Counted from the stretch's first letter, positions 8,342-61,378 are shown. The stretch is 64,000 bases of DNA from an uncultured Christensenella sp. (GCA_949290515.1 CASERZ010000003.1:2961-66960); one strand, 5' to 3'. Translations and numbers: made by a program. The notes: generated by a model from the sequence alone, not told the origin.

Positions 8342-8370
8342 ATTATATATTCATATAATTTTTTTGTCCA
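8342..8370 (-). promoter_or_regulatory. candidate sigma-A promoter for the GH95 operon (TGGACA-17 nt-TATAAT)
   Basis: Minus strand reads TGGACAaaaaaattatatgaataTATAAT, about 45 nt upstream of the GH95 ATG. Confidence 0.35.
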
Positions 8371-8379
8371 TACAAAATA

Positions 8380-38564: not shown

Positions 38565-38598
38565 TAAATAATAAAGGGACCGCACGCCGTGCGGTCCC
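38565..38598 (-). terminator. rho-independent terminator ending the giant-protein operon
   Basis: 10-bp GC-rich stem GGGACCGCAC/GTGCGGTCCC (3-nt loop), followed on the minus strand by TTTATTATTTAT. Confidence 0.7.
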
Positions 38599-38623
38599 TC
38601 TATCGGATTTGCTTTCAAATCAA

Positions 38624-41600
38624 TCAGTATTTCATAGTAACGTTTACGCTTACGCTGTAAGTAGTTCCGTTGCTTTCTACGTCATAGCTGACCGATATAG
38701 TCTTGAGCTTGCTGTTTGCCGAATCTGCAGTTACGGTAACTTTGCCCTTAGTAGCGGAAGCTATTCCGAGGAAGTTTTTGGCGTCCTTGATATCCGCTTT
38801 GAAGGTTGCGGTTCCGTTTGAATCGGTAAACGATGCGTTTTCGAAGTACTCGTTTTTGAAGTTGAATCCCGTACCCTTACCCGAGAGGGAGAAGCTGCCG
38901 TCGGGATTAAGTCCGTCTGCGAAAGTTTCTTCTCCGTCATCGTACTTATAGATAAGCGTCGAGCCGCTCTTGACTTCGATGACTACTTCTCTGTCCTTCT
39001 CGTTGCTTGCCTTGGAGTAAGAAGCAAGTTGGAAGAGAGAGTCCTGAGTAAAGGTTTTGGTTTCGCAAGCTGCAAATACTACTGCGAATACGGTAGCTAT
39101 TGCAACTGTTGCAACTATTACCTTGAAGAGATTTTTCTTGTTGGCTTTAGGCATTTTCTTCTTGTCGTCCTTTTCTCTTTTCTTAGCGGATACGGAAAGC
39201 ATTACGCCTGCAAGCGCAAGACCTGCGCCCGTAGTAAGTGCAAGAGTCAACGCACCTTTGCCTGTCATACCCGAAGCCTTGGTTGCTACGGATTGCGCTC
39301 CGCCGATAACGTCTATTGCACCGCTGAGCAAATCTTCATAAGACTGTCTGAGTGCATCAACCTTTTCGGTGTCGATAGATGCCATATCGTCTTCGCCTAC
39401 GAGTTCGAGCTGAGACAACATACTCTTGTATTCGTCGATATTGCTGAAGTCTACCTTGTCGATAGAGTCGATAGCTGCGATAACCGTCGAAGGATTGATA
39501 CCCGTGGTTACGGTAAAGGTAACTTCGTTGGACTCGAGATAGTTGTCAGTCTCGCCCGCTTTTGCGCTTACGGTGTAAGACGTGAGAGCTTTTGCATCGA
39601 ACGTGTTGGTAGTGAGATATGCACCGTCATCTACCTTGTACTGCATATTTTCAAAAGCACTGTTGAAAGTAAGTTTGTTGTAGTTGATAATCTTTTCGAT
39701 ATCGTCTGCGCTCAAAACTCTCTCAGCCTTGTTTACAACAAAGGTAAGAGTGTTGGGCTCGCCTGTGAACATCGAACCGCTGCCGTCAACGGAAACGGTA
39801 ACGTAATACGTACCTGCATTGATTATTTCGGTAATTACGTTGAGACCTTCTGCATCGGAAGTAATCTTATAAGTATAACCGGTAATGCCTTCAGCTACGT
39901 TAAATGCGATTTGACCGATAAGGTTTTCGCCCGTATAGCTCGTCTGGTCGGAAACAAGCTGAATTGAAGAGATGCTCGTGCCCGTTACGGTAAGAGTACC
40001 CTTTTGGGTAACGGTAAGGATATAGTTGTCAGCAGCCTCACCGCTGATAACGATTGTCAGGCTGTTGGGATAATCCTGTGCGCCTGCGGTGATATCTACG
40101 TCAGTCACAAGCTCGACTACGAGTTTGCCGGAATCGATATCGGACTGTACAAACGTTACGCCTGTGTTGTAAGTATAAGGGTCGCCTACGGGAGTAATAT
40201 CTGCTATACCGTATTCTCTTGTAGCGTTGTTTACGGTAATGCTGACTTCTCTTTGGGTGATTGTAAAGGTCGTGGAAGGAAGCTCTTGTCCCTCACCGAT
40301 AACGAGATTGTAGTTGGGGCTGTCAACGCCGCTGATAACTGCATCGTAAGTACCTACGTTGATTGCATTGACCTTTTCGCCGTTCTGGAAGTAATCGAAA
40401 GCTACACTTACGGTATCATCGCCTACGAGTGCGCCGTCTTCGAATACGGCTCTTACCTCGGGAGCGATAACTTCACCTGTGTATACAAAGCTGTCTTCGC
40501 CTACGATTTCGGCACTGAGGATACGGATATCCTTGGGAGTGATTTCAAACGTAGCCTTTTCCATATTGACGATATAGTTGTCATTGTAGCCCGTTACGAT
40601 TACTTCGTAAGTACCTACATTCTTTACTTCCTTATCTGCTACGGCAGTAATAACAATGCCGTCGCCTTCGTAGAATCTGTTGTCGCCTACGTACTCGAAA
40701 CCGAATACGGGAGCTTCGTCACCGTATACCATAGTCGTCTTGGACGTGGTGGTAGCAACGCTTACTTCGTAAGGAATTACAGTCATAGTACCGTTGTCGT
40801 AAACGATATCGTAGTTGGATACGTTGCCTTCGGTGGAAGTGCAGGTGATATCGTACTCGCCTACACCGCCGAACTGTCCTGCAGCAGTGGAGAGATTGAG
40901 AACAACGCCGTCTCTCTCGATGAAAGTATTTTCGGCATCGGCATAAGACCAAACGAATTCAGGGTCGAGTTCGCCGTAAACCTTTTGTGCGTCGGCAATA
41001 TTAACTCCTACTTGCTTAGGAGCGATTTCAAATGCAAAACCGCCGTCCTCGTAAATAATCTCATAGCTGGAGGTATCGAAGGAAGCAACAAGTTTAGCAG
41101 TTACGGTATAAGAGCCGGCATCAATTGCTTCGCTGACAGTCTCGCTTCCGTTTTTAACGAATGAATACTCGAGCTTTACTCTGCCTGCGTGTATGTTGAG
41201 CAAGCCGGTGTTTGTCTCGTTGTTTTGAGTTTCGTAAGTTGCTGCTACGGGTACGGCACTGCCGTTGTACTCGTAATTTGTAGGCAAACCGTCGTCAAAC
41301 GTTACGGTAACCTTACGGGGAGTTACGTTATAAGTGCAAGCTGCGCTTACTGCTTCGTTGTAATTCTTGTTTACGCCGAATGAACCGCCTACGTAGTATA
41401 CTACTGCGTATTTGCCTGCAATGGAAGGAACTCCCTGAGTATACTCGGTAACAGAGAAAGGCGTGTCCTTAAGGTCGTAATCGATATAGTACCATTCGCC
41501 CGTAGGAACTTCGTTGTTTACACCTGTTACGGTGATTGCGGGTGCAGAGTTGATTTGTCCGAATGCAATGGATTTCTCCGTTTCGGTAAGATTGAGAACT

Positions 41601-44377
41601 ACATCTGCTTTATCAATGTATACGGTATAAGTTACGTTTGCGGCAAGGTTGTAGTTGCGCGCTGCAATACCTTCGTTGAGTCCGATGTTGACTTCAAAAG
41701 AGCCTACATTGACGGTATCGCCGTTGTGAGCTACGTTTATAATGCCGTGGTCCTTGTCAAGGACGTTGCAAATTACGATATTCTCGCTAGGAAGCGCGGG
41801 CTTATCGTTGTAGATACCGTAAGTGAGCGACTGGTCGAGACCGTTGTACTGTACGGAAAGATAATAATCGGATTCCAAAGGAGTCAACGTATTGTTGAGA
41901 ATGGAAACCTCACGTTTTGCGATAGTAAAATCTACGCGTGTTGCTTCATAATCGTACGTATAGTTGGAATTGGAAAGCGATTCGAGCATTACGTAGTAAT
42001 CGCCTGCGTTTATAGCAGAGTTATTGTCGGGCAAGGAGCCGTCGGAATTGTAGTACTTAAGAGTTGCGTTGACTGTGTCGCCCGCTACGATACCCGAGCC
42101 GAAAGCCGCGGTATAAAGGACTGCTTCGCCGTCATACTGATTGTTAGCGGCAAAGTCTGCGGGAGCGTTGAGCGTAACGCTGAGATTCTTAGCTACAACG
42201 TTCTGATAAACTCTGGGCTGCCACGTAGTAGCACTGGAAGTTGTGCCCGAGCCGTCCGTAGGATAAGCGTCGTTGTCTTTTCTGTAAGCAACGTATCTGT
42301 TGGTGGTATCGAGGACGTCGATTGCGCTCTCGGGTTGATTGTTGTAAATAAAGTATTCGTATTCGCCTACATTCTTCGTATCGTCGAGAGAATAAAGGTT
42401 CATATCGTCAGTTTTCTTTGCTACCCAATACTGAGCCGCCTCGTCGGAATTGTAAGCAATCGTCTTGATAGCGCTTGCGGAAGGATTGTCTCTGTCCGCA
42501 TAGTCGTATACGTCGATATTGGGAATAATAACTCTCGAGCCGTCGTACTCTTTGTCGGAAAGTCTGTAATTCTTGCCTTCGGGAGTAGCGGTTACGTTGT
42601 CGCTGAATCTGAACTTGTAATATACGATTTTACCGAGCTGGTATTTGATTTCCGTAGGAGAAGAGTGAGTTCTTTCGATAGTCGTATAGGTAACTTCGTA
42701 TTTACCTGCCTCTTCATACTCGGTAATTTTGTCGTAGAAGTTGGTAATTTCGCCGCTGGAATTGTTGGCGGTATCGAGGTTTACTTCCATCTGCCAGAGA
42801 ATAGCGCCGGGGTTATTCTGAAGGTCTGTGTTGTAAACAGCAAGAACGTCTGCAGTCTTGAGGTTGCTGGAGAAAGTAAGATAAGCGTTGGCTGCCTTTG
42901 CAGTGCCGTTTACGTTATAATACTCACCAGTTGACTCATTGTAATCCATTATGTAGATACGTTCTACAGACATACCGCAAGTTCCCGTAGCAAAGTTGTA
43001 GCCCGTTACGCTGGAATTGGATATCTGCGACTCGTCGTACATAAAGTATACGTTGGATACGGTAGCGCTGCTGTTCTTTTGGTTGCCCGAAAGTCCGCAA
43101 ATCTGCGATGCGATGGAGTTGTTGACCTGACCTATCGGTGAGTTACTCGTATCCTTAACAAGATAAACCGCTCTGCCCGTCCAGGTATTGATAACGCCGT
43201 CGATAGAGCCTGCGCTCAAAATATCGCCGACTAAGCTCGACTGGTTGCCTGTATTTTGGGAAGGAATAGCACAGCTTCCTGCTACTATACCCGAATAGGA
43301 AAGAGGGTTATCGCCCGCGTTACTTCCGGTGTAACCCGTTACTGCGGCGATATTGCCGCTACCTGCAGTCGTGATATTATATACGGACGCGCCGTTGCCC
43401 ATCCAGCCTGCTATGCCGCCGCCCCATACTCTGACGTTAGCGGTTTTGCTGGCACTTCTTGCAGCAGTTATATTAGCAGCAGTGCCTACTTTAGAGTTGG
43501 TATGAGTAGTGCCGCTCAATGTAATCTTAGAGTTGGATACAACGCCGTTGTTGGACAAAAGTCCTACATATCCGCCAATAGCATAAGAGTGGCTTGCCAT
43601 TTCTTTGTATCTGCCGAGCCAGTCATCACTCTTTGTACCGTTTGTGGTAACATCAAAATAACCGTTTACTGTCAACGAGCAGTTATCTATCGTACCGGAA
43701 GACAAAGCCGCGATTATACCGCCTGCACCCGATTCGGCAGAGTTGTACGAACCGGCCACTTGTCCGTTATATACGAAATTAATATTTTTTATAGTGCTGC
43801 TAGAGGGGATATAACCTACCAGACCGCCGTTAAGGTCGAAATAATCGCTAGGGAATCCTGAGCCCTTGTAGGACAAATCTTGAGTAAACGTATTCTTTAA
43901 AGCGTTTGTGAAATCGGTACTGGAGCCTATTCCCATCCAAGGCTGAGTATTGAGCGAAGTCGCGGTCATATATATCTTATGTCCGCAACCGTCAAGCGTT
44001 CTGCCCTCCGCCATCATCTGACTGGTAAACGAATTGCTCCAAGAGAAGCCGGTGATATCTGTTGTCAGATAGCCATATGTTCCGTTGTTACCCTGCAAGA
44101 AGGACTGCAATTCGCCTACAGTTGAAATCGGGGTGCCCGATACACTGTAACCCTCGGGTACGTTGCCGTTTATCATCAAATCGCCTATTACGATTGCTCC
44201 TTCGTCTCCCGACGCGGCTATAGAGCCGCTGCCGCTACCGCTGCCTGCGACAGTACTGCTGTCTTCGGCAATAGCTGTAGAGACGTTGGAGGTAGCTGAG
44301 ATGATAGACGCAACTAAAAACAGAATCAATGCTAACGCTACAACTAGCATAAGACTTTGTTTTCTTGCTTTTGTCAT
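38624..44377 (-). CDS. giant cell-envelope protein 3 (1917 aa): signal/anchor, GLUG-motif region, MBG/Ig-like repeats, TM anchor, then in-frame lipoprotein-like segment and 146-aa terminal domain
   Basis: N-terminus MTKARKQSLMLVVALALILFLVASII. GLUG-like motifs GGIIAALSSG, GGYVGLLSNNG, GGIAGWMGNG. MBG (YGX-type) units such as KVYGELDPEF...GEYDI...NYDIVYDNGTMTV. C-terminal part ...LALAGVMLSVSAKKREKDDKKKMPKANKKNLFKVIVATVAIATVFAVVFAAC.... RBS AGGAGG. Confidence 0.85.
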   Translation of the reverse strand: MTKARKQSLMLVVALALILFLVASIISATSNVSTAIAEDSSTVAGSGSGSGSIAASGDEGAIVIGDLMINGNVPEGYSVSGTPISTVGELQSFLQGNNGTYGYLTTDITGFSWSNSFTSQMMAEGRTLDGCGHKIYMTATSLNTQPWMGIGSSTDFTNALKNTFTQDLSYKGSGFPSDYFDLNGGLVGYIPSSSTIKNINFVYNGQVAGSYNSAESGAGGIIAALSSGTIDNCSLTVNGYFDVTTNGTKSDDWLGRYKEMASHSYAIGGYVGLLSNNGVVSNSKITLSGTTHTNSKVGTAANITAARSASKTANVRVWGGGIAGWMGNGASVYNITTAGSGNIAAVTGYTGSNAGDNPLSYSGIVAGSCAIPSQNTGNQSSLVGDILSAGSIDGVINTWTGRAVYLVKDTSNSPIGQVNNSIASQICGLSGNQKNSSATVSNVYFMYDESQISNSSVTGYNFATGTCGMSVERIYIMDYNESTGEYYNVNGTAKAANAYLTFSSNLKTADVLAVYNTDLQNNPGAILWQMEVNLDTANNSSGEITNFYDKITEYEEAGKYEVTYTTIERTHSSPTEIKYQLGKIVYYKFRFSDNVTATPEGKNYRLSDKEYDGSRVIIPNIDVYDYADRDNPSASAIKTIAYNSDEAAQYWVAKKTDDMNLYSLDDTKNVGEYEYFIYNNQPESAIDVLDTTNRYVAYRKDNDAYPTDGSGTTSSATTWQPRVYQNVVAKNLSVTLNAPADFAANNQYDGEAVLYTAAFGSGIVAGDTVNATLKYYNSDGSLPDNNSAINAGDYYVMLESLSNSNYTYDYEATRVDFTIAKREVSILNNTLTPLESDYYLSVQYNGLDQSLTYGIYNDKPALPSENIVICNVLDKDHGIINVAHNGDTVNVGSFEVNIGLNEGIAARNYNLAANVTYTVYIDKADVVLNLTETEKSIAFGQINSAPAITVTGVNNEVPTGEWYYIDYDLKDTPFSVTEYTQGVPSIAGKYAVVYYVGGSFGVNKNYNEAVSAACTYNVTPRKVTVTFDDGLPTNYEYNGSAVPVAATYETQNNETNTGLLNIHAGRVKLEYSFVKNGSETVSEAIDAGSYTVTAKLVASFDTSSYEIIYEDGGFAFEIAPKQVGVNIADAQKVYGELDPEFVWSYADAENTFIERDGVVLNLSTAAGQFGGVGEYDITCTSTEGNVSNYDIVYDNGTMTVIPYEVSVATTTSKTTMVYGDEAPVFGFEYVGDNRFYEGDGIVITAVADKEVKNVGTYEVIVTGYNDNYIVNMEKATFEITPKDIRILSAEIVGEDSFVYTGEVIAPEVRAVFEDGALVGDDTVSVAFDYFQNGEKVNAINVGTYDAVISGVDSPNYNLVIGEGQELPSTTFTITQREVSITVNNATREYGIADITPVGDPYTYNTGVTFVQSDIDSGKLVVELVTDVDITAGAQDYPNSLTIVISGEAADNYILTVTQKGTLTVTGTSISSIQLVSDQTSYTGENLIGQIAFNVAEGITGYTYKITSDAEGLNVITEIINAGTYYVTVSVDGSGSMFTGEPNTLTFVVNKAERVLSADDIEKIINYNKLTFNSAFENMQYKVDDGAYLTTNTFDAKALTSYTVSAKAGETDNYLESNEVTFTVTTGINPSTVIAAIDSIDKVDFSNIDEYKSMLSQLELVGEDDMASIDTEKVDALRQSYEDLLSGAIDVIGGAQSVATKASGMTGKGALTLALTTGAGLALAGVMLSVSAKKREKDDKKKMPKANKKNLFKVIVATVAIATVFAVVFAACETKTFTQDSLFQLASYSKASNEKDREVVIEVKSGSTLIYKYDDGEETFADGLNPDGSFSLSGKGTGFNFKNEYFENASFTDSNGTATFKADIKDAKNFLGIASATKGKVTVTADSANSKLKTISVSYDVESNGTTYSVSVNVTMKY

Positions 44378-44529
44378 AATTACCTCCTATCATATTGACG
44401 GATTGCCCGCCATATCAATATAAGAATTTAATAAATATCGTATTATATCTTCCGTCGCACTGCGACGCTTGTTGTCGCGTATGAGTTTTCCACGGCGGGC
44501 GGACTTGCCGTCCGCCGTGAGTTTAGTTA

Positions 44530-47500
44530 TCAGACCGTACCTCTTTGTTTTCTCTTCTTAACGGTAACGATTGATGTGATGATTGCCGCTATCATTAGCG
44601 CGCCTACCACGCCGATTACAATCCAGCCTACCAGACCGATATTGCTCTCGTTGATTTGTCCCACCTTAAGTTCCCAGGTATTCTGGAGATAATGGTTGTT
44701 GTCTACCTCGATATATACGGTATATACGCCGTCGGGCAATACGCCGTTCGCGTCAGGCTTGACAAGTGTGAGATTACCGGTTTCTGCACTCTTGGTGTAG
44801 TACAAGAGGTCACCCGTCTTTTCTACGCCGTCAATCGTGTAAGTACCGTAGTACTTGCTTACCGATACTCCCGAAGGAAGCTTGTTGGGCAAAGTAATGT
44901 TTGCGCTGTCTGCGGTGAGTGCCATAGGATAAATTTCGATATAAGTCTGCAAATCGAATGCTTCGTAGTTGTTGACGAATATCGTGATATTTCCGCCGTA
45001 AACTCCCGCGTCGGTTGCGGATACGGTACCGCTGATAAGTGCGTTTACTTCCTTGCCGTGGTCCATATAGTAATAGTTTCCGTCTCTGAACTCCAGTCCG
45101 TTGAAGGTCAGGTAATGTGCCGTACCGTCATAAGTAGCCACTAGCGCGTTTGCGGTAATGTTGAGCTTAGCGTTTGTAATGCTTACGGTAGCCTCGATAT
45201 TGAGAGGCACATAGTTATCTTTGGACATTCTGAGCGTGATTCTGTAATTACCTACGTTAACGCAAGCACCCAGAGCATAGATATCTTCGAGCGAATTGTA
45301 AGCTCTGCCGTTGTAGTAATAGCTAATCGTCGAGCTGTTTCTGTATTCGTCGGGAATAACTTCGGTTACCTTGTAGACCTCTGCGTTGTATACGCCGGAT
45401 ACGCCTGCAAAGGTAACGTTCTGGAATACTGCCTTGTCGATGACCATAGTCACATCGATGGAACAGCTTGCGTAGTTTTCGGTTCCTACATACTCAACTC
45501 TGAACGAATAACTATCAACGTCCATAAACCAGCCGCCGAGTTTGTCCTCGCTCTTATCCACTTCGACGTAAGAGTTTGTTGCATCATCGTAATACTTGAT
45601 TACGATTGCGCCTTCGGTAGGCATAGAGCTATCCCACAATACTTTCTCGTCCGCCGTAGCCTTGACTTCTATCTTTCCTTTGACAACGTCGTAGGTGTGC
45701 TTCTGGTCGTCATAGTTGAAAACGACGGATTCGCCAGTGATTTCTGTCTTTGCTATGTTGACTATGATAAGTCCGAGTTCGCCTGCGTCTTTACCGTAAG
45801 TCTGACCCAAGAAGTAATCGTTTTCTCTGACTACGACTTCTACCTTGTAATAACCTCTCTGCGAAGTATTTGTAGTAGGATTGAGGTCATAGGAGCCGAC
45901 CATTTCTTTCTTTACGCTGTCGTAGTACGCGCCATCGTTGTACTTGTAGTAGTTGATGGTGATATCACCCTCTGCGAAGTACTTCTTCTGTTCTTCGGTG
46001 AGTCCGAGGTCGTAAGTATTGTTGTTTCCGGTATAGTCTACATTGACAACCTTCATCTCGATATTTACGAAGCCCTTGGTGACTGTCATTTCAAAGGTAT
46101 CCATTCCGTCAACCACATAGTTAGCGTCGCCTGTGGATATCTTGTAATTGAACTTACCGATTTTGGTAAATCCTGACATAACTTTATTGTCTTCAACGAA
46201 GGTGTAATCTACCGTAGCATTCTTCGGTTCGCCTGTTATCGCGTCTTTATACGTAGCAGTAATTGCGTGAGTAAGTCCGTCAAACTGTATCTTTGTAGGT
46301 ATGTTGGTCGAGCCGTCGTATCTGAGGTCGACGAATACGGGCAAAGCTACGATTTGAATAGAAGTATTGTTGATTGTTACGTCAATACTGTCGTTTGCAG
46401 TATGAATCTTACCTTCAACTGCATAAGTACCTACGCCTGCGCCCTTCTTTGCATTGGTGATAAGGTCGATTCTCGCTACTTCGTCAGCCGTAATGTTGGC
46501 ATCAACGTAAGTAGGAATATCGTCACCGTAGAAGTACTGAGCGTTGAGGTAATCTGCAAGATTTACGGTTACGCTGAGTTTGGTGATGGCAGCTGCAACC
46601 TTATTGATTGCCTCTGCATTATTCTGATAGTCGCCGCTGAGGTCTGCAAACCATACGTCAAACTTATAGTCGTTGTCACCCTCGAGCACCGCCCACATTC
46701 TGATATTGGTAGAGCCTATGGAAGCTCTCTCGTATTCGAGCACGAGCTTGATGGTAGAGAAGTCAGGGTTAACAACGGTTGCGTTGTAAGCGTCGGTGTT
46801 GACCATTACATAACCGCTTCTTGTCAGGTCGATTTCGAGTTCAGGACCCTTGTAAGCCTGAGTGCTGTCATATACTTTATTAAAGTAATCGGGATCGCCT
46901 GCAAGTAAATCCTTGAGCGAGTTTCCAGCCTTGTCGACAATTGCATCGAGAGAGATATCGATATAGAAGTCAGCCATCTTCATATATACGCAGAATTGAC
47001 CGACAAGTCCGTCTGCAGTACCGTTGGCATATACGTCTTCGTAAAGTCCCTCGTTGTTGACCATCTTTACTCTGAAGTCGGCGGGAGAATAGGTGTTGTA
47101 ATCGCCTATGTTCCAGTCAACCTTGTTGATGAAGTCGCCGTTTACTACCTCGCCCATCTCTTTCCATACGGGGTTGCCGTCTCCGTCAACGCTGTCGCTG
47201 ACATACAAAGTCCAACCGGAATTACCTACTTCTGCTCTGTTCATCAAATTGAAACCGTCCTGGTCGTAAGTGCCGTAATAGAGTGAATATCCGCTTACGC
47301 TTACGTCGAGACTTCCCGCATTGAGGTCAACGAGAGCCTTCATTTCAAACGTAGTTGAGTTGCCGACTACGTCGGTATAGGTAAGGGAATGAGCCTTGTC
47401 ATCGGTCAACGTCAAAGTAACGTTGTACATATTTTTCTCGTCAACGATTTCGTTGGAGATATACGTATTGTTGTCGGAAGCAACTGTCTGCAAACCGCTC

Positions 47501-49932: not shown

Positions 49933-49950
49933 AATTCGCTAATCCCCCTG

Positions 49951-52900: not shown

Positions 52901-55900
52901 GGCAATATACCTGCTGTAATATTTCTTACCTGTCCGAGTACGCCGCCTATCAACGCATTAGTGATGAGAGGTGCTACCCAGCCGTATCCCAAAGACGATA
53001 CAAGGTCTCTAAGAATAGGAACGACCTGTTCGCTCAAAGTACCCCAGAAAGATACTCCGTCGTTTGCCTCGCCTTTAAGTTCTCTCGTCCAGTTGACGTA
53101 AGCGAGATAGTTGTCGCTGAACATATCGGGAGCCAATTCAGCAAGATTGAGAACTGTCTTGGGACCGAATACCAAGGACAACATATCGTCGAGGAGTTTG
53201 TTGATAAGATAAGGGTCAAACTCAACGGTTACTCCGAAGTTGCCGTTTGAGAGCAAGCTTGCATTGATACCGCCGCCGAGAAGTGCCACTATGTCGAGAT
53301 TAGCAAAGATTTCATCAAAAGGACTGGGCTCGGTTGCAGTTGTTTCGCCACCGCTCTGAGTGCCATCTCCGGTAGTACCTTCACCCGTAGGAGGTACTTC
53401 GCTGCCACCGTCACCGCTGCCGTCGCCGCTGCCGATACCGTCGAGTGCGTCGTCTATCTGAGCAAACAGATTGTCAAACGTACCGGAAAGCATTCCGACA
53501 AGGTCGAGGTCGAAGGACAAAGCTCCGATGGTATTACCGATATCGACTACGAGATTGATTACGCCCGAACAGATATGGAGAGTCATCTGTTGAGAAGGTT
53601 TGGTATAGTCAAGTATGACGTATATTAAAGGGGTCATCGTACCCTTATTGGAGTTTTCGTATCTCGTGCTGTCTATCTGTGCAAGAGTAATAAGGAAGCA
53701 TCCCTTAGGAACGGTTACCGTATTGGCAAGGTTAGTAAGAGTCTTACTCGTCTGGAGTTTTTCTATGATAACTCTCGTGTACATTGCCTGATTGCTTCCC
53801 TTGGTTACTTCGGTATCGCCCGTAAAGTTAGCTATATCGAGAGTGAAACCTATATTGAGGTTGTCGAGCAAAGCCTTGGTAAACGTCTCGCCGTTGCTAG
53901 CGTCCCAGTCGGGGATAGCATCGTAGTCGATATTTACTACGGGAGACTCGCCGATGGCAAGCTGCATATTGACTTGAGCGGAGATATCCTCTACTCCTAT
54001 GTCAAAGTTAAACGCGTTTCCGCCGAACAAGTCGAGGTCGGCTGCAAGGCTTATATCCATACCGAGATTCATACCCGCAAGGGTATTGATTATCTCTGCA
54101 AAGAGCGCAGCGGTAACGTTGATGGTAATCTTGGTATCTTCGAATCCTACGGCACGCAATACATATTCTATGATATCCATAGTAGTATCGTCGAGAGCCC
54201 CTTCTGCGGATTCTTCGTCCGTAGCAATTTCTACGTCAGTATTGCCGTCTTCTCCGGTACCGGGAAGGGTAGGCAAACCGCTGTCTGCAAGCAAATCGTT
54301 GATTATCTCGTTGAGGTCAAGACCTTGAATGTCGCTTACGATTCCGTCAAGTGCTCCGAACAATTTCGTAATAATGTTGGAATTTGTGATTTCAACCTGG
54401 AAGAATCCGAGACCTTCGAGGTCAATCATAAGGCTGTTACGGTAGATATATACGCCGAATATCTGCTTGCCCTCATAGGACAACGTGAGCACTACCGTGC
54501 TGTTTGCAGTATTCTTAAGGTCGAGATCCCACTGTACAACGAGTTCAACGAAAGAGTTCCAGTCGTCAAGGTCGAGAGTGATAGGCAGCTCGAGTCTGCG
54601 TCCCGCGCTCGCGAGAATATTATTGATAAGCTTGGTGAGGTTCATCTCGTTGTTGAGAGTCTGCAAATCAATCTTTGCTCTTATCGTAGCCTTACCTACG
54701 GTATCAATTATCGCTTGAACGAGGTCGGACTGATATGCCTCGAATTCGCCTATCTTCTGAGCGATATCAAACTTAGCATCGCCGATATCTCCTACTATAA
54801 TAGGATTTTCGTCATCGCCGGCAACAAAGGAGAGGGTCATACCGCTTCCGTAGTTGTATTCTTTGCGAGCATAATCTTCGGGAGCGTAATAAATCTTATT
54901 GCCCTCTTTATCTCTGCAAGGCAGTTTGTTGCCTTCGGCGTCGTAATAGTATACGGCATTGCCCTCAGCATCCTGCATAGGTATCAATTCGCCTGCAAAA
55001 TTGAATTCGAAGCCGTTCTTTCTGCCCATCTCGAAGCTAAGACTGAGTTCCATCAAGCTCAACGCCTCGGCTATAGTCTGACCGAGTTCTGTCTGAGTCT
55101 GAGAAAGAATGGAAAGTATAGCAGCAAGAGATACGGTTGCGTATATCTTGTCGCAGTTGAGACCGAATATTATAGCTTGCAACTCTTCTTCGGGCACTTC
55201 GGAAGTGCTTCCGTCGCCGGTCGAACCTGCTTCGTCTGCAAGATATGCCGTAGCTGCCGCAGAAGCGTCTGCGCTTTCTCCGGGCGTCTTGTTAAGTCCG
55301 AGAAGCTCTACGAGGTCAAAGTCAAAAGGCAAATTGCTGTCCATTCCGGCTCCCTCGAGCAGGTCACCCAAAGTCGAACCCAACAAATTGTATACCAAAT
55401 CGGTAAAGTTGAGAGAGAAGTTGAGCTTAGGCAAGGTTATACTTGCTATCTTGAAGTTGGATACATCTATGAATATTTGATTCTGATATCCGTAAATACC
55501 CAAAATTACAGTATCAGCAGGGATAATGGAAGTACCGCCGACTTTAATACCGGTGAGCGTCTTAAGTTCTACCACTATCTGACTGTTGTACGCATCTAAG
55601 CTGTCAAGCGCTATCTGAACGTTGAGCTGAGCGTCCAAAGTAAAGTTTTCGGTAAACGTCCACAGCATCTCGGTCTGAGCAAGCTGAGATACTCCGAAAC
55701 CTGCTATGAAAGGAGCAAGGTCGTATGTACCCTTATTGAAATTGAGAGTAATTCTACTGCTCATAGTAATTCCGCCGAGTATCTTGTCAAGCAAGCCTTT
55801 TCTTTCTTTATCGGAGAAGAGGGAGTCAGCATAACTCGTATTTTCGAGGTTTACTCTGTCAGCAATATATACGCTGAGATTTTCTTTTGCCGTTCCGATG

Positions 55901-57858
55901 AGGAAATCCCATATCTTGAGTTCTACGTCAAACGCAGGGTCGCTCTCGCCGTCGAGAACTGCCGCGTTTACTTTGACGCTGTCAAGACCTATATCCGAGA
56001 AGTTTACGGAGAGTACTATATCGGAGATATAGTCAGGGAAAGCAAAATTTATAGGTTGAGGATTGGTTTCGTTCTTAAGCAAATTATTGAGCGAAGAAAG
56101 GAAATCATTGTTGAGAATAATGTCGATTGAGTCATTGTCCGCAACTATATTCTCAGGCAACATCAGCAATTCGCCGATAACCTGTACAAATCTCTGCACC
56201 CCTGCTGATACGTAAATCTTGCCGTCCTCTCCCTCGCTGAGAGCAACTACGGAAGTGCCGCTTGCTTTTGCGCTGGAAAGAAGCTTGAGTACGTCAGCCC
56301 CGGAAGTGGTGGAAAGCTGTCCGTTATCCTCGACTTTCACATTGAGATTGCCGTTTTTGATATCGTCATAGCTAGTGCCGAATACTCCGTCAATCGCTTC
56401 GGTAACAAGGTCAACGATCGCATTGATGAGGTCGGACAAACCTGCATTAACCTTAAGGTTAACACCCTTCATATAGTCGGGAAGCAATCTGTCGAGATTG
56501 AGATAGAAGCTGCCCTCGGTATAGTAAATACCCATCTGAGGTACGGGTTGACCGCCCTCGAGCTCCTGATAATTACCGAACTGGTCGATAAGATAGAGTT
56601 CGATAGCAATCTTGTTGTTATCGACAGGCTTTCTGTCATAGTTAAGGTCGAGGTCCAATGCGAATTTCAACCTCAATCCCGTACCGCCTTCGAGCAGCAA
56701 TACGTCGAGAGGCAGTATGTTTTGTCCCATAAAGCCGTTGATAATCTTGCCGACGTCAAGCTGAGTCTTAGAGCCGTCGGGATTAATTCTCGTACCGAGC
56801 GTTAAGTCAATGGTAAAATTGATATTCGTAAGCGAAAATTCGCTAATCTCCATTTCGTCGATTGCGGGAATGGTCATATCACAGGGGGTATTACCCAAGT
56901 CCAAAGACAATTCGACCTTGTTAGTTTCTCCGTCACTGTGAGCTACCGAATCCAAATCCATATCGGTGAGCTTACCGTCAGCATCGAAGTCCGCGTCGAT
57001 ATAGAAATCAGCCTCAGGCACTACTTCAAGGAGATAGTTGAATATAATATTCAAATCCAAAGGAAGGTCGCCCAAATCAAACGCACCCAGAATACCGCTT
57101 GCGTTTTGCAGCAAATCTCTGAGCTTAATCTTCATACGTATGTTTTCGAGTACCTTGGTCTCCGAATTGTAAGTAGCGACAGGGTCCTCAAAAAGCAAAC
57201 CTATTACAAGACTCAATACGTCATCTATCGTCAAGCCCAAACTTTCGTCCAGCAAATCGTTGAGCATATCAATTAAATCGCCGAACAATTCAGGACTTTC
57301 CTTCATCATAGCGATGAGATAATTCATATCGAAGTCCGACAAATACAACAACGCTCTGTCATTGCCGAGTTCGTCTTTTCCGAGGTCTAAGTACGCCTTG
57401 CCATTGACTACGTAGAGAGCGAATTTCATAACTCTGCTTTCGTCAGGCTGGTCCTTGCCCTGCAGATATACGCCGAGCACCAACTCGTTCTTGACAGTAT
57501 CAAACAAGTTGACCTGGAACAACAGAGTGATTATCTCGTTGGTATCAGGCTTGTCGATTTTTACCTCGAAGTCGACACTCATCGTATCTTCTTCAGGACT
57601 GTCGGCGCCGTTGGCAATCTTGTTCAAGGCGTCATTCGGCGACATATAGGCAGGCACGTCGTCTTCTTCGTCTTCGTCACCGTCGTCGGGGGGACCATCA
57701 GGTCCGTCAGGCGGTCCCTGATTTTCGTCGCCGCTTACGTCTCCGCTAGGGTTTTCTTCTCCCTCGCCGAAGAGGTCGCACGCCGCAAAGAGCGACGAGA
57801 GCGCGAGTACAAAAATCATCACTAAAATTGTCAAAACTATAAGTTTAGATTTTCTCAT
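49951..57858 (-). CDS. giant lipoprotein 1 (2635 aa): lipobox, acidic linker, ~1650 aa of unassigned repeated modules, ~950 aa of Ig-like beta-sandwich repeats
   Basis: Start MRKSKLIVLTILVMIFVLALSSLFAAC at 57858 follows GGAGAGGAAATT. Acidic Pro/Asp/Glu linker. See findings for module structure. The C-terminal part has repeated P-x-TVTV-x-Y-x-(D/T)G...V-x-W-type units. Confidence 0.8.
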   Translation of the reverse strand: MRKSKLIVLTILVMIFVLALSSLFAACDLFGEGEENPSGDVSGDENQGPPDGPDGPPDDGDEDEEDDVPAYMSPNDALNKIANGADSPEEDTMSVDFEVKIDKPDTNEIITLLFQVNLFDTVKNELVLGVYLQGKDQPDESRVMKFALYVVNGKAYLDLGKDELGNDRALLYLSDFDMNYLIAMMKESPELFGDLIDMLNDLLDESLGLTIDDVLSLVIGLLFEDPVATYNSETKVLENIRMKIKLRDLLQNASGILGAFDLGDLPLDLNIIFNYLLEVVPEADFYIDADFDADGKLTDMDLDSVAHSDGETNKVELSLDLGNTPCDMTIPAIDEMEISEFSLTNINFTIDLTLGTRINPDGSKTQLDVGKIINGFMGQNILPLDVLLLEGGTGLRLKFALDLDLNYDRKPVDNNKIAIELYLIDQFGNYQELEGGQPVPQMGIYYTEGSFYLNLDRLLPDYMKGVNLKVNAGLSDLINAIVDLVTEAIDGVFGTSYDDIKNGNLNVKVEDNGQLSTTSGADVLKLLSSAKASGTSVVALSEGEDGKIYVSAGVQRFVQVIGELLMLPENIVADNDSIDIILNNDFLSSLNNLLKNETNPQPINFAFPDYISDIVLSVNFSDIGLDSVKVNAAVLDGESDPAFDVELKIWDFLIGTAKENLSVYIADRVNLENTSYADSLFSDKERKGLLDKILGGITMSSRITLNFNKGTYDLAPFIAGFGVSQLAQTEMLWTFTENFTLDAQLNVQIALDSLDAYNSQIVVELKTLTGIKVGGTSIIPADTVILGIYGYQNQIFIDVSNFKIASITLPKLNFSLNFTDLVYNLLGSTLGDLLEGAGMDSNLPFDFDLVELLGLNKTPGESADASAAATAYLADEAGSTGDGSTSEVPEEELQAIIFGLNCDKIYATVSLAAILSILSQTQTELGQTIAEALSLMELSLSFEMGRKNGFEFNFAGELIPMQDAEGNAVYYYDAEGNKLPCRDKEGNKIYYAPEDYARKEYNYGSGMTLSFVAGDDENPIIVGDIGDAKFDIAQKIGEFEAYQSDLVQAIIDTVGKATIRAKIDLQTLNNEMNLTKLINNILASAGRRLELPITLDLDDWNSFVELVVQWDLDLKNTANSTVVLTLSYEGKQIFGVYIYRNSLMIDLEGLGFFQVEITNSNIITKLFGALDGIVSDIQGLDLNEIINDLLADSGLPTLPGTGEDGNTDVEIATDEESAEGALDDTTMDIIEYVLRAVGFEDTKITINVTAALFAEIINTLAGMNLGMDISLAADLDLFGGNAFNFDIGVEDISAQVNMQLAIGESPVVNIDYDAIPDWDASNGETFTKALLDNLNIGFTLDIANFTGDTEVTKGSNQAMYTRVIIEKLQTSKTLTNLANTVTVPKGCFLITLAQIDSTRYENSNKGTMTPLIYVILDYTKPSQQMTLHICSGVINLVVDIGNTIGALSFDLDLVGMLSGTFDNLFAQIDDALDGIGSGDGSGDGGSEVPPTGEGTTGDGTQSGGETTATEPSPFDEIFANLDIVALLGGGINASLLSNGNFGVTVEFDPYLINKLLDDMLSLVFGPKTVLNLAELAPDMFSDNYLAYVNWTRELKGEANDGVSFWGTLSEQVVPILRDLVSSLGYGWVAPLITNALIGGVLGQVRNITAGILPFAVFNELTVNVEVADATIANISIDGFDWGQDIYDTNGQVAYSASKSGRKGNVNNNSVINRDGYFTSIKLYNTSDSVGKPVYGDDGGILFPEGIVTWNGIPMQITYDPYSYTNNAEGVASIIREHFSGKQASYQKAQELYKTAVVFKIVSENGTTVDKTIDQLNFNTPGTYVVRGTAAFANNVTRTIDTIITVLDDGGGIKSIDPVSMHVYDELPDFVTINLNDGTSRKIHTKYVTFSENAPQAYTEHTVAGKAAFANGTVVENVEFRYLDSTVTQINIDGATGNVITIDLYQYNIKSTKITDYISDTIFFKYADGLSTGLEVSRDWVAVGADEFFNRALDKDGVYSTNVSGTQFMAYAYIGSGATEQRVELIFTVNTKNVAKLTINGLENTLRVDPYRYYMYLITGDEQYNPFTTVATAEYYDKYMSADGTQEIIDSYSEDVKITWGDYSGIDFSWDNNNTNSQNIKVSLDNAEYSNSSFTWDFNTQVVVMRNEIEAVYFDEKLTQSMYYIDPFEYFINKELGKANYPDHAYVQFTNGKVYYMPIEWIGTEDFEVKYANQFAQLKVRIGMDYEGKLAGVIGDFEQTITVNVRVEDLNPVGINLAGSAYAGGTYYIDPVRVNYYGESVFPETVTVVYDTGKTTELPVHEWIWDYQDAGYVPMAGQKGMTATAVITDTYRYDVNVEILDRSALVTDLKSVDVDSYTFTYDENGNRVYSVFTDTLLLYQKVGTINLDSVTVNGNVNMGTIAATSDYSYYFSYIINYSQEVDGEVKDFVFTTKEWKEAADFVANNKSLITSTEVRINYTTPVTWDLSEINYAVSDVYNVKAIAGTGASQKVFRVSANVKAKTAEDISSVGGVNTYQVVTWGGTSLTENEKQTKKIVKNLNVYFTDGTNGNYECTIDISNLAYTADDAYTLLIVSDGNNIIYKDNAGNVLSTEEEIFNAAMSVKVTVFSGDIAIETTLKMHVVKQQINTASDSGAQG

Positions 57859-57911
57859 AATTTCCTCTCCTATATTAGTAAATTTATAGTGCACACCTAT
57901 TTTAAAAACGG

Positions 57912-57932
57912 TACCTTAAAAATACCTTAAAA
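57912..57932 (-). promoter_or_regulatory. two TACCTTAAAA direct repeats with 11-bp phasing, immediately upstream of a candidate -10 (TATAAA, 57883-57888): possible response-regulator site
   Basis: TACCTTAAAA at 57912-57921 and 57923-57932. Further copies at 57984-57993 (TACCTTAAAA) and 58107-58116 (TATCCTTAAA). No good -35 hexamer at the expected position. Confidence 0.4.
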
Positions 57933-58516
57933 TTTTTCGTTGCCCTTATATATATAGCGTTTCTGTAATACGTAAGGTGATACTACCTTAAAATTTCTGC
58001 TTTTTTTCGATGCTGAAAATGCACTTTTGTGCGTTTTGAGTTAGTTTCGCACATATAAGAATTTTTTTGCAATTTTACATAAAATTTACATTAATAAAAC
58101 TTAAACTATCCTTAAATTTTGCAAAATTTTTATTTTTTCCATATATCATTCTCCTTTTCGGATACTTTCTGCGGTAATCGGACGCGATTCATCGAAGAGT
58201 GACAAATTTCGTCGTTTTAAAGAAATATTTTGCCTTGCAATCAGCAAAATTTCAGCATTTTTTATGGACAAAACAGTTTTAAAATATGCACTATTTAATC
58301 AACAAAATCACTCTGCCACATCAGCAAGCAGTGCCGACGTATTTTTAAATAATCGGTCAAAAAACAAGCCGGTTTTTTATCAATTTTTATTCCTATATCA
58401 GCTATTTGTATACTTGTTTTATAAGTATATATTGATAGTCAATACAGAACGTAACAGGATAACGTATTATCATAAATATAGATGCCGCTAAAGCCGCAAC
58501 CGCTTATATACAAGAC

Positions 58517-58546
58517 GGAAAAAAGGCGCACGAAGACGCCTTTTAT
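58517..58546 (-). terminator. rho-independent terminator after the histidine kinase gene
   Basis: AAAAGGCG-cacgaaga-CGCCTTTT. On the minus strand the stem is followed by TTTTTTCC. Confidence 0.65.
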
Positions 58547-58580
58547 ACATATTTATTCTAAATTATAACGCTATACCGAC

Positions 58581-59843
58581 TCAGCTATTTTCGCCGGTCT
58601 TATCCATCTCTATATCCACTCGGAAACCGTGAGGTGAATTATGGCTAGCGTGCACATTCCATTTCAGCGTTTGCGCTATCGACTTGACTATGGACAATCC
58701 GAGCCCGCTGCCGCCTGTAGATTGCGTGCGCGAATTGTCGGCACGATAGAATCTGTCGAATATCTTTTCCAAGTCCTCATCGCTTACGCCTTTACCCGTA
58801 TCAGCCACGCTTACGTGCACTTTGGTAGACGTATGGCGCACTTGTATAATTACAGCATCTCCCTTACGCGTGTATTTAACTGCGTTGTCCAGCAGAATCA
58901 TTACCGCCTGTCTTATTTTATCCGCATCGGTAGTCGCCATAATGTTTGGCGCAATATCCGATATAAAAGTCTTGTCGTCCATTTCACACATCAGTTCGAA
59001 AGGCTCGACCAAATCCTGCAATAACTGCGATACGTTGCAGTACGTCTTGTTTACAACCACTCTGTTGTTGTCCGAGCGCGACAATTCAAGCAAATCGCGC
59101 ACCATTCTCTTCATTCTCGTAGCTTCGTCAAGAATTACCATCAGCTTGTCAGAACTGTCCTCTATGCTCTTGTCCGAATGCGCAAGAATATTGTCTACGT
59201 TAGTCTTGATTACAGCAAGCGGAGTATTAAGCTCGTGCGATATGTCGTATATCATTCTGTTACTGCTCGCAACAAGTTTTTTATATGGACGAATTCGGTA
59301 TTTGCTCATTATAGCGGAAAACACTATTACAAGCCCCATCGCAAGCAACATTATTGTAATCGATATAGCTGTTCCCTTCTCGAATATTGCGTTTTCACTC
59401 TCGATATCTCTGAATATCATAAGATGCGTTGCGCCGTATTCGTTTTCCTTAACCACATCCATCGAAAGCGCGATATAACTCTCCCCGTTAATCTCATACA
59501 CGCCCTCGCCGTCTATCGGCACGTACTTCTCGGGAATTCCCTCTACCGGTTGACTTCCCAGCCCCTTATCGTCAAGCCTGTTTCCCGACGCATCATAATA
59601 TATCACGTACCACGTATTAGTAAGCGTAGCGGCTTCCGAGCGCGTGAGAATTTTAGTCGTACCGAATTCCCTGCCGTACGTCTTTGTTCGTGTCATCAAA
59701 TCACTCATCAATTGATTTTTCCAAATCTGAATTATTAAAATGGTTGATAAAAGAAAAATCACAAAAGGAATTACAATGTTTAAAATATTAAACATTGTAT
59801 TTTTATCTATAGGCGTCTTTCTGCCGCTATCCTCAATCTTCAA
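58581..59843 (-). CDS. sensor histidine kinase (two TM segments, ~130-aa extracytoplasmic loop, HisKA, HATPase_c)
   Basis: H-box ISHELNTPLA, N-box LLDNAVKYT, G1 DTGKGV, G2 GGSGLGLSIV. Overlaps the regulator gene by 11 nt. Confidence 0.85.
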   Translation of the reverse strand: MKIEDSGRKTPIDKNTMFNILNIVIPFVIFLLSTILIIQIWKNQLMSDLMTRTKTYGREFGTTKILTRSEAATLTNTWYVIYYDASGNRLDDKGLGSQPVEGIPEKYVPIDGEGVYEINGESYIALSMDVVKENEYGATHLMIFRDIESENAIFEKGTAISITIMLLAMGLVIVFSAIMSKYRIRPYKKLVASSNRMIYDISHELNTPLAVIKTNVDNILAHSDKSIEDSSDKLMVILDEATRMKRMVRDLLELSRSDNNRVVVNKTYCNVSQLLQDLVEPFELMCEMDDKTFISDIAPNIMATTDADKIRQAVMILLDNAVKYTRKGDAVIIQVRHTSTKVHVSVADTGKGVSDEDLEKIFDRFYRADNSRTQSTGGSGLGLSIVKSIAQTLKWNVHASHNSPHGFRVDIEMDKTGENS

Positions 59844-60507
59844 CCTTTTCTCTCCACATATAGCCGATATTTTTTATCGTCTTGAGATAATCCTTGCAAC
59901 CGTACTTTTCAAGAATCTTGCGGAGATTGGACACGTAAACTTCTATAACGGTTATTACAGTGTCGCTGTCAAAGCCCCATATTCTGTTGAAAAGCTGCTC
60001 CTTAGGAATTATAATGTTGCGGTTGCGGATAAGATATTCGACTATATCGTACATCTTGCCGGCAAGCTTGACATATTCACCGTTGACCTTGAACATCTTG
60101 TTGGCAAAATCAAGCTCGATATTGTCATAAGTGTATTTGGTATGGAAATTATTATTGTATCTTCTCAACACCGCTTCGGCTCTCGCTACAAGCTCGTCTC
60201 TGTCGAAAGGCTTGGGAAGATAATCGTCCGCGCCGAGTTTAAGTCCTTCGATTTTCTTATCCGTGCTGCTGAGCGCGGTAAGAATGATTACGGGGCAGGT
60301 GCTCTTTTTCCTGAGTTCCTGCAATACTTCAAAACCGTTTTTCTTAGGAAGAAGCAAATCGAGAATAATGAGGTCGTAAGTGTTTGACTCAGCCATATAC
60401 AACCCCTCGAGTCCGTCGTAAGCGGCGTCGCTCGTGCCGAGTTTTCCCAAACAATCTCTGATGCTCTGATTAAGATTGATATTGTCTTCTATAACCAAAA
60501 ATTTCAT
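59833..60507 (-). CDS. OmpR/PhoB-family response regulator
   Basis: Start MKFLVIEDN at 60507 follows GGAGG. Receiver domain (DLIILDLLLPKKNG). Winged-helix C-terminus (VEYLIRNRNIIIPKEQLFNRIWG...IEVYVSNLRKIL). Confidence 0.9.
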   Translation of the reverse strand: MKFLVIEDNINLNQSIRDCLGKLGTSDAAYDGLEGLYMAESNTYDLIILDLLLPKKNGFEVLQELRKKSTCPVIILTALSSTDKKIEGLKLGADDYLPKPFDRDELVARAEAVLRRYNNNFHTKYTYDNIELDFANKMFKVNGEYVKLAGKMYDIVEYLIRNRNIIIPKEQLFNRIWGFDSDTVITVIEVYVSNLRKILEKYGCKDYLKTIKNIGYMWREKVED

Positions 60508-60553
60508 ACGTACCTCCGCCGACCGTGTCGGCAAACAATTATTGTTTATAATC

Positions 60554-60583
60554 ATTATAACACACCCTGTAACGGTTTAGCAA
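60554..60583 (-). promoter_or_regulatory. candidate promoter of the two-component operon (TTGCTA-18 nt-TGtTATAAT, extended -10)
   Basis: Minus strand reads TTGCTAaaccgttacagggtgTGTTATAAT, about 45 nt upstream of the regulator ATG. Confidence 0.45.
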
Positions 60584-61263: not shown

Positions 61264-61296
61264 TATAAAATCCGCCGCCCGTGCAATCGGGCGGCG
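61264..61296 (-). terminator. candidate terminator downstream of the NlpC/P60 gene
   Basis: CCGCCGCCCG-tgcaat-CGGGCGGCG. On the minus strand it is followed by ATTTTATAC. Confidence 0.5.
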
Positions 61297-61378
61297 ACAG
61301 TGCGCAATCTTTACGGCAAGGCTATGCTTGTTTCTCGCGCCTTTTGCCTGCCTGTTCAAGATTGATTGAGCAATATCA

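Follow-up and report, generated by a model that had tools for sequence, protein, structure and literature searches.

We investigated a 64,000-nt stretch of DNA from an uncultured Christensenella sp. (GCA_949290515.1 CASERZ010000003.1:2961-66960; hereafter the window), in which five co-oriented open reading frames (ORFs) on the minus strand encode a response regulator (RR), a sensor histidine kinase (HK), and three giant proteins (G1, G2, and G3). This ORF set is a real, conserved, and unannotated locus, and it is probably a clade-specific surface-protein operon of uncultured Christensenellaceae-like Clostridia that is activated by a dedicated RR of the OmpR/PhoB type. Control of the operon by the adjacent RR is well supported by the comparison of related loci, and the gene comparison likewise supports G1-G2-G3 as a functional unit, because every locus has G1 next to G2 and, where the sequence extends far enough, G3 after them. 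An earlier annotation made from the window alone (the sequence-only reading) had reported the five ORFs, including giants of 2635, 1800, and 1917 aa, and had placed them under the adjacent two-component system. The ORFs are present as claimed, and the proposed control agrees with the RR adjacency, with the co-occurrence of RR and predicted boxes, with promoter replacement, and with the location of 32 of 35 boxes at G1.

The G1 family is confined to metagenome-assembled genomes labeled uncultured Christensenellaceae, Christensenella sp., Clostridia, or Clostridiales; it was found in 24 genomes among 185,579 at species level, and a large protein index contains 42 clusters of it. A G2 ortholog lies 3′ of G1 in all 31 distinct related loci that reach past G1, with G1-G2 gaps of 10–22 nt in all loci, and a G3 ortholog lies 3′ of G2 in every locus long enough to show it (the order G1-G2-G3 was read in L001-L006, L008, and L033, and G1-G2 in L009-L032). 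In 22 loci an RR ortholog lies directly upstream of G1; a 23rd, cut at the contig end, has an HK there. The RR orthologs are 51–100% identical to the window RR (at least 62% in all loci but L020), across the same loci in which G1 is only 24–45% identical outside the closest relatives. In L006 and L008, RR-HK-G1-G2-G3 sits in a different chromosomal neighborhood, and the cassette therefore travels as a unit. The succession of two-component system, lipoprotein, and paralogs noted by the sequence-only reading is thus conserved among relatives for G1-G2-G3, with the RR next to G1 in the 22 loci.

The RR ORF spans 59833-60555 (minus strand), with a likely start (MKFLVIEDN) at 60507, and its translation matches Pfam Response_reg (1e-24) and Trans_reg_C (2e-17), with the phospho-acceptor Asp in YDLIILDLLLP. 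The HK gene (58581-59843, minus strand) overlaps the RR gene by 11 nt, and its product matches HisKA (2e-14) and HATPase_c (2e-24) and carries the His box SHELNTPL. These domains bear out an OmpR-type regulator with its kinase. A hydropathy scan of the HK placed transmembrane (TM) helices at residues 20–38 and 160–178; the extracytoplasmic loop previously described does lie between them, at a length of ~120 aa and not ~130 aa. No HAMP domain was detected in the HK. Both proteins fall below every NCBIfam equivalog cut-off (RR: 170 bits vs. 350; HK: 180 vs. 400), the named equivalogs considered being PhoB/PhoR, WalR/WalK, VanR/VanS, CpxR/CpxA, and others; because neither reaches a cut-off, they are an unnamed pair of the OmpR/PhoB type.

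The predicted proximal regulator box (57912-57931, minus strand) consists of TTTAAGGTA twice at 11-bp spacing and overlaps the −35 region, with TTAAG-N6-TTAAG at 57915-57930. A third copy of TTTAAGGTA is at 57984-57992, and all three occurrences of this exact 9-mer in the window fall within 57912-57992. A predicted distal box of the same form, TTAAG-N6-TTAAG (TTAAGGATAGTTTAAG, 58100-58115, minus strand), lies 257 nt upstream of the G1 ATG and recurs at the same position in L001, L005, L009, L010, L011, L013, L014, and L022. Exact matches to TTAAG-N6-TTAAG number two in the 64-kb window (0.32 expected), and both are in the HK-G1 intergenic region. Ten nucleotides downstream of the proximal box is a −10-like TAAAAT (57899-57904, minus strand), and a T(T/C)TAAAAT or TATAAT-like −10 is conserved ~10 nt downstream of the repeat in related loci. 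Transcription of G1 would start downstream of TAAAAT, and a ribosome-binding site, GGAGAGG, is visible in the sequence at 57864-57870 (minus strand). In the OmpR/PhoB family, 11-bp direct repeats that replace the −35 are the classic activator architecture.

The comparison of boxes and promoters covered 30 loci. Of the 23 loci that bear an RR or HK, 22 have TTAAG-N6-TTAAG at 66–107 nt upstream of the G1 ATG, the exception being L008, which has a degenerate TTAAA-N6-TTAAG. Five near-clade lineages without the RR (six loci: L003/L024, L017, L019, L021, and L023) are also without the TTAAG repeat, and carry at its place a consensus TTGAC-17-TA(T/A)A(T/C)T promoter of the sigma-70 type, ~40–75 nt upstream of the G1 ATG. 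When both strands of 702 kb of loci were searched for exact repeats, 32 of 35 fell within 300 nt upstream of G1; two of the other three are ~55–67 nt upstream of the RR gene (L030 and L032), and one is 68 nt upstream of the last cluster gene of L007. The boxes at the RR gene (L030 ~3532, L032 ~3198) suggest autoregulation of the RR in the L030/L032 lineage; no box was seen upstream of the window RR.

The state of the phospho-acceptor also varies with the kinase. The Asp is kept in 9/9 kinase-bearing loci and is replaced by Glu in 9/9 kinase-less lineages of one group (L001, L011-L014, L016, L018, L020, and L022), and four other kinase-less loci (L026, L030-L032) keep Asp. Substitution of Glu for Asp is often phosphomimetic, and atypical regulators such as ChxR carry Glu naturally. 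The set of loci therefore appears to form a regulatory series, in which expression would be signal-dependent with RR and HK, kinase-independent with an RR that carries Glu, and constitutive with no RR and a consensus promoter; this series argues that the main job of the two-component system is control of the G1-G2-G3 operon.

G1 occupies 49951-57858 (2635 aa counted from the ATG), G2 occupies 44530-49932 (1800 aa), and the whole G3 ORF occupies 38624-44377 (1917 aa), all on the minus strand. The kinase had been credited with a terminator of its own, and a terminator-like hairpin can be read after the HK stop (58517-58541, minus strand, AAAGGCG...CGCCTTT followed by a T-run). The gap between HK and G1 (57859-58580, ~720 nt) has 27–33% GC vs. 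~46% in genes and no credible ORF, the largest being an implausible 75-aa antisense ORF. It had been taken for a 690-bp AT-rich, ORF-free leader; the AT richness and the scarcity of ORFs hold for the ~720-nt gap. Because the conserved regulator boxes and the −10-like TAAAAT lie only 40–75 nt from the G1 ATG, the gap is probably, for the most part, untranscribed promoter DNA.

G1 and G2 are separated by 18 nt, as first reported, and GGGGGA precedes the G2 ATG. The G2-G3 spacer is 152 nt long and holds a hairpin without a coding-strand T-run (44491-44519, minus strand); these features were described correctly in the sequence-only reading, but the hairpin is larger than it stated (12 bp, 10 of them GC). 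A promoter-like TTGATA-18-TATGAT (44389-44418, minus strand) lies 3′ of the hairpin. L005, L009, and L010 retain a stem, though of different sequence, and the 152-nt spacer with its hairpin is specific to near relatives of the window, the G2-G3 gaps being 16–18 nt in L006, L008, and L033. A 16-bp terminator-like hairpin 3′ of the G3 stop (38570-38604, minus strand) marks the operon end. Searches of the window with Rfam (gathering thresholds) and a tRNA scan returned no RNA element in the leader or the spacers, nor anything elsewhere in the window.

G2 and G3 both start with an N-terminal signal peptide, and their heads are 26% identical over ~280 aa (E = 2e-8), as expected of the distant paralogs they had been taken for. 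The heads had also been assigned GLUG motifs. This assignment did not hold at the level of sequence families: GLUG (PF07581) was not matched by Pfam in the head of either protein even at E ≤ 10, and Pfam searches of head, tail, and mid-region tiles at the same threshold returned no GLUG and nothing interpretable. Strings of the form GGxxG...G(T)I.N recur by eye in the heads; the likeness to GLUG is at the level of motif and fold only. An AlphaFold2 model of G3 residues 55–560 (predicted local distance difference test, pLDDT, 78; predicted template modeling score, pTM, 0.85) shows a run of short strands that forms a β-helix, and the right-handed β-helix head is predicted to span residues ~55–520. 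Foldseek matched it to the Streptococcus pneumoniae IgA1 protease (7jgj, probability 1.0) and to a Bacteroides “putative IgA1 protease” (3n6z, 0.99), followed by the Lactobacillus reuteri SRRP binding region (0.5), PfbA, and pectin/pectate enzymes.

The MBG/Ig-like repeats that had been ascribed to both paralogs are supported in G3, where Pfam MBG_2 is significant (1.8e-11, two stretches); G2 has no Pfam stalk match, and its repeats are visible at the motif level only. MBG-like “G-x-Y...N-Y” motifs recur 85–100 aa apart in both proteins, with at least six repeats in G3. G2 ends in a TM helix (residues 1771–1789) followed by KKRKQRGTV; members of the G2 family share this C-terminal TM helix and basic tail, and closer homologs also have a KRK-type motif. 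No LPXTG-like motif is present at the C-termini of G2 and G3, and Pfam found no anchor domain (SLH, choline-binding, or SH3b) in them. The C-terminal TM helix with basic tail proposed as the anchor of both proteins is therefore right for G2 but not for G3, since TM1 of G3 precedes a second hydrophobic segment, a lipobox, and a domain of ~146 aa.

Mean identity among strains of the window's species is 97.7% for G1, 93.2% for G2, and 95.2% for G3. Residues 100–500 of G3 are 83–92% identical among strains vs. 96–100% in stalk and tail, and variation concentrated in the head is the pattern expected for exposed tips that face a ligand or the immune system. The most variable stretches among same-species strains are residues 200–400 and 800–1200 of G2 and residues 100–500 of G3, with the heads at 83–92% identity and the stalks, like G1, at 96–100%.

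The composite C-terminus of G3 appears to have arisen by gene fusion. G3 proper (39191-44377, minus strand) would comprise the signal peptide, the β-helix head, the MBG/Ig-like stalk, and TM1, which the hydropathy scan placed at residues 1709–1729 (39191-39253) and which is followed by the basic loop KKREKDDKKK. The second hydrophobic segment (residues 1753–1771) ends in the lipobox ...VFAAC, and this tail arrangement is conserved down to 30–35% identity. In L033, G3 ends after TM1 and a basic tail; 2 nt later begins a gene of its own for a 179-aa lipoprotein (17785-18324), with the lipobox segment ...FVFVAC; the C-terminal part of this small lipoprotein matches the window G3 tail (E = 3e-4). 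Because L033 encodes the matching tail as a separate gene, we take the window G3 to be an ancestral G3 fused to a small lipoprotein (G4; 38624-39154, minus strand, G3 residues 1742–1917), the ancestral operon having had four genes. We considered an internal translation start for G4. Although an in-frame ATG is present at 39154, it lacks a convincing Shine-Dalgarno sequence, and several homologs do not have the Met; G4 is therefore read as a true fusion. Processing of the internal lipobox by Lgt/Lsp in the fused G3 is speculative.

G1 had been called a lipoprotein, and it indeed has a signal peptide that ends in the lipobox LFAAC (...LSSLFAAC, Cys27); the pattern applied was a signal peptide ending in [LVI][ASTVI][GAS]C, and the Phe at position −3 is slightly atypical. 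A Cys closes the hydrophobic segment of the signal peptide in all G1 homologs examined, down to 24% identity. Cys27 is followed by an acidic linker and then by ~4–5 diverged modules with a period of ~350 aa (residues ~90–1500), with acidic or Gly/Ser/Thr linkers between them. β-Rich, Ig-like-looking sequence makes up the last ~900 aa, one subthreshold Big_4 match being the sole Pfam signal there. Longer homologs (3300–4300 aa) hold additional copies of the ~350-aa module, and in Pfam searches of five distant family members borderline Big_4 matches were the only addition.

G1 has no significant match in Pfam, NCBIfam, or PDB sequences, and its best-conserved module, used as a profile, has none in Pfam or among PDB sequences either. 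Searches of G2 and G3 against PDB sequences likewise gave nothing useful, and NCBIfam matched none of the three giants. When residues 85–1195 of G1 were compared exhaustively by HMMER with 1.84 billion representative proteins, only 67 matches were returned, of which the full-length ones are mostly giants of up to 7116 aa. The AlphaFold2 model of the same residues (mean pLDDT 64, pTM 0.47) has repeated sheet-plus-helix units, and Foldseek matched it to a Staphylococcus aureus hypothetical protein (4egd, probability 1.0), LolA (2w7q, 0.89), microsomal triglyceride transfer protein (6i7s, 0.69), and the LolA-superfamily structures 3buu, 9tp6, and 7arm (~0.45). These matches are weak (template modeling scores 0.25–0.36, E from 2e-3 to 0.1). 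A phage-fiber origin of G1 was also tried and set aside, a Foldseek search of viral structures having given low-probability matches only. Because the LolA-like matches are weak and the module profile and the viral library returned nothing, we regard the ~350-aa module as an orphan domain whose likeness to LolA, an open β-barrel capped by a helical lid, is unproven.

The surroundings of the operon vary among relatives. The genes downstream of the operon in the window (HI0933-like, FAD-dependent protein, and BspA-type leucine-rich-repeat, LRR, protein) are also found in L033. The last of these is a 549-aa protein in the window (33442-35091, minus strand, LRR_5 2.5e-59), 3.5 kb downstream of the operon, and is probably another surface protein. 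Upstream, an AT-rich, ORF-poor gap of ~820 nt (60556-61378) separates the RR from an NlpC/P60-SH3 gene (61379-62242). A rubrerythrin-like gene downstream of NlpC/P60 stands before the RR in L001 and directly before G1 in L003; a search of the window detected no remnant of it. In L002 (one strain), phage-like genes including a reverse transcriptase (RVT_1) and XhlA replace the genes upstream of the RR (1-8701), and the insertion may be a prophage with a diversity-generating retroelement next to the locus. In L007, the most distant locus (G1 of 4280 aa), the boxes are at ~9934, upstream of G1, and at ~30232, upstream of a 362-aa gene after the G2-like gene, and the place upstream is taken not by an RR but by a sigma factor, an RsgI-type anti-sigma factor, and a trypsin-like protease. 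The window also encodes a SipL protein (SPOCS domain plus LysM) at 21241-22740, which suggests that the organism is an endospore-forming member of the Clostridia.

We propose that the kinase would sense an extracytoplasmic cue through its ~120-aa loop and phosphorylate the RR, which would bind the repeats as a tandem dimer and recruit RNA polymerase to a promoter without a −35 of its own, much as PhoB acts at pho boxes. Translation of G1 and G2 would be coupled, and G3 would be expressed by read-through of the nonterminating hairpin, from the weak internal promoter, or both. G2 and G3 would be exported and held in the membrane by C-terminal TM helices, each with a strain-variable β-helix head on an MBG/Ig-like stalk, and the heads most likely bind a glycan or another cell surface. 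G1 would be anchored N-terminally by lipid, in the opposite orientation, as a chain of orphan ~350-aa modules with a β-rich, Ig-like-looking end. Together, the three proteins most likely make a co-regulated fibrillar coat for attachment or aggregation in the gut, with G1 as scaffold or partner.

Several points weigh against this explanation. It is from comparative genomics that the RR is predicted to bind the TTAAG repeats, and L007 has the box with no RR gene within its 32.8-kb locus. The Glu-for-Asp group is probably one clade, and the correlation may represent a single evolutionary event, so that the correlations would not be independent. Regulation also appears not to be fully explained by the RR, because a separate direct repeat, TGTAAA-N5-TGTAAA with an 11-bp period (TGTAAATTTTATGTAAA, 58074-58090, minus strand), is kept 216–249 nt upstream of the G1 ATG in all near-clade loci, RR-less ones included (window, L001, L003, L005, L009-L014, and L016-L024). 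All 21 plus-strand matches to this repeat in 765 kb of loci fall at that single position, and its role may be that of a second promoter or of a binding site for another regulator. The role of G1 is a guess, because there is no informative homolog and its model has only moderate confidence (pLDDT 64) and weak fold matches. β-Helix heads also occur in polysaccharide lyases and hydrolases, and an enzymatic head is therefore possible on the modeled fold. Finally, the organism is known from metagenome-assembled genomes only.

The sequence-only reading had inferred that the three giants make up one surface structure (an adhesin or fiber). A single joint structure is plausible but unproven, and in a strong form of this idea G1, G2, and G3 with the fused G4 might assemble into one heteromeric envelope fiber or apparatus, in which G1 is oriented oppositely to the C-terminally anchored G2 and G3; we consider such an assembly possible, if on the unlikely side. 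It would fit a gene set strictly co-conserved in every related locus and tightly coupled (10–22 nt between G1 and G2, and 16–18 nt between G2 and G3 in distant loci), a G4 that is always the last gene or fused to G3, and the higher conservation of G1 than of G2 or G3 among strains, as expected of a scaffold. However, each of G2 and G3 could work alone, being complete with signal, head, stalk, and anchor, and a search for an interaction domain gave none. Across lineages the length of G1 tracks that of G2 (r = 0.93, n = 8), which fits a shared reach from the membrane, perhaps co-assembly, but the correlation is uncorrected for phylogeny. Co-assembly is hinted at only by these correlated lengths and the strict co-conservation.

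We think it unlikely that the giants act as a structural or protective surface layer (an S-layer substitute, a spacer, or a shield against phage or immunity) and are not ligand-binding adhesins. The very large investment (19 kb and 6352 codons) and the anchoring of all three proteins in the membrane, not the wall, would suit a coat, strain-variable exposed heads are suited to immune or phage pressure as well as to ligand binding, and the S. aureus giants under ArlRS-MgrA shield other adhesins (PMC4856396, PMC6548404). Yet a β-helix head on a stalk is a typical design for adhesion and binding (PMC9210967), and ancestral expression that depends on a sensor would be unusual for a constitutive structural layer.

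A bolder form of the joint structure strikes us as distinctly unlikely: G1-G4 would be one membrane-anchored surface apparatus of Christensenellales new to description, with G1 antiparallel to two TM-anchored, β-helix-headed fibers and with deployment in response to a cue that the dedicated kinase detects. In such an apparatus the copy number of the ~350-aa module would set the length of G1, and its use would be, for example, attachment to partner microbes or host mucus.

Improbable, too, is that G1 is a chain of LolA-like half-barrels that handles lipids or other hydrophobic ligands, in which lipids or lipoproteins would be held or passed along through a thick envelope while G2 and G3 play an accessory part. 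The highest-probability Foldseek matches of the G1 model (4egd, 2w7q, LolA-superfamily structures, and 6i7s) favor it, but their scores are low and the model pLDDT only moderate, the module profile is without a match in PDB sequences or Pfam, and module number differs widely between species, as in stalks. The organism is, moreover, apparently a spore-forming Firmicute (SipL), and the window has no sign of an outer membrane.

That the two-component system merely neighbors the operon and regulates something else would agree with its own terminator, the 720-nt gap to G1, and the several lineages without the kinase or without both genes, but this explanation is largely refuted, and we give it hardly any chance, given the RR-box correlation over 30 loci with nearly all boxes upstream of G1, the recurrence of the RR-HK-G1-G2-G3 cassette in another neighborhood (L006 and L008), and the coincidence of RR loss with gain of a consensus −35.

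The surface-protein operon with a dedicated activator, our favored explanation, bears on a group whose cell-surface biology is, to our knowledge, essentially unknown. The locus is a concrete candidate for attachment or aggregation in the Christensenellaceae group, and offers a predicted regulator, operator, and promoter, strain-variable predicted binding heads, and a natural regulatory series in the set of loci (RR with HK, orphan RR with Glu, and no RR with a consensus promoter). A new domain would be defined by the orphan G1 family, which numbers only 67 representative clusters in 1.84 billion proteins. Christensenellaceae and related taxa are gut bacteria that are heritable and associated with health (PMC6819567); Christensenella minuta forms flocs that are colonized by methanogens (PMC7002349).

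No described giant-protein or adhesin system of Christensenellaceae was found in the literature, and the claim of the sequence-only reading that no system of this composition was known is true of the exact composition, the general kind (tandem giant surface-protein genes) being known. On sequence and modeled fold, G2 and G3 fit the pattern of fibrillar adhesins apart from the type of anchor. They are very long, and have a signal peptide, a predicted N-terminal β-solenoid head distal to the anchor, and a repetitive stalk, as fibrillar adhesins do (PMC8286594, PMC9210967); MBG is listed among stalk domains of such adhesins and β-solenoids among their adhesive heads (PMC9210967). Unlike fibrillar adhesins, they have a TM helix and basic tail instead of an LPXTG/sortase signal or known anchor domain. 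The G3 head resembles SRRP and PfbA in its Foldseek matches to the L. reuteri SRRP binding region and PfbA, but its best fold matches are helices of the IgA1-protease type. Unlike SRRP, G2 and G3 show no serine-rich tracts in their translations (Ser+Thr 16–19%) and no LPXTG, and Pfam scans of ten neighboring ORFs, a part of the window's ORFs, revealed no accessory Sec gene (SecA2/SecY2) and no glycosyltransferase gene.

By analogy, the closest described counterpart appears to be the Giant1-5 set of Apilactobacillus kunkeei, consecutive co-oriented genes for giant extracellular proteins that account for a considerable part of a small genome (PMC12863079). Several of the Giants have N-terminal, SRRP-like β-solenoid heads on long repeat stalks, Giant5 resembles G1 in having no β-solenoid or recognizable fold, and neighboring giants co-diverge (PMC12863079). 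In contrast, the Giants are predicted to have no TM helix and to attach by C-terminal SH3b-like domains (PMC12863079), whereas attachment here would be by lipid (G1) and TM helix (G2 and G3), with no SH3-type domain found by Pfam in G1-G3. The stalk repeats also differ, the two sets being compared by description, and the text of the Giant1-5 paper does not contain the terms “two-component” or “lipoprotein” (PMC12863079).

The predicted regulation of the operon resembles class II activation by PhoB at pho boxes, in that the RR combines a receiver with a winged helix and two direct repeats of 11-bp period replace the −35 ~10 nt upstream of a −10-like hexamer, and the kinase-less lineages resemble ChxR of Chlamydia in having Glu at the acceptor site. 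Unlike PhoB and ChxR, the repeat sequence is TTAAG and the regulon differs, and the window RR is below the NCBIfam equivalog cut-offs. Ebh is anchored by a C-terminal TM segment and a positively charged tail with no LPXTG, and G2, with its C-terminal TM helix and basic tail, would be held in the same way. Ebh and Embp are also giant surface proteins governed by a two-component system (PMC3868527, PMC4856396, PMC6548404, PMC9302970), but they have FIVAR/GA-type helical repeats, which Pfam did not find in G1-G3, and in their control ArlRS is unlinked and represses via MgrA (PMC4856396, PMC6548404), whereas the RR here is adjacent and apparently a direct activator. Within the known kind of clustered giant surface proteins, the present locus stands out by a dedicated activator with a defined predicted operator, by anchoring through membrane helices and lipid, by a giant lipoprotein of orphan type, and by the fusion of G3 to a lipoprotein.

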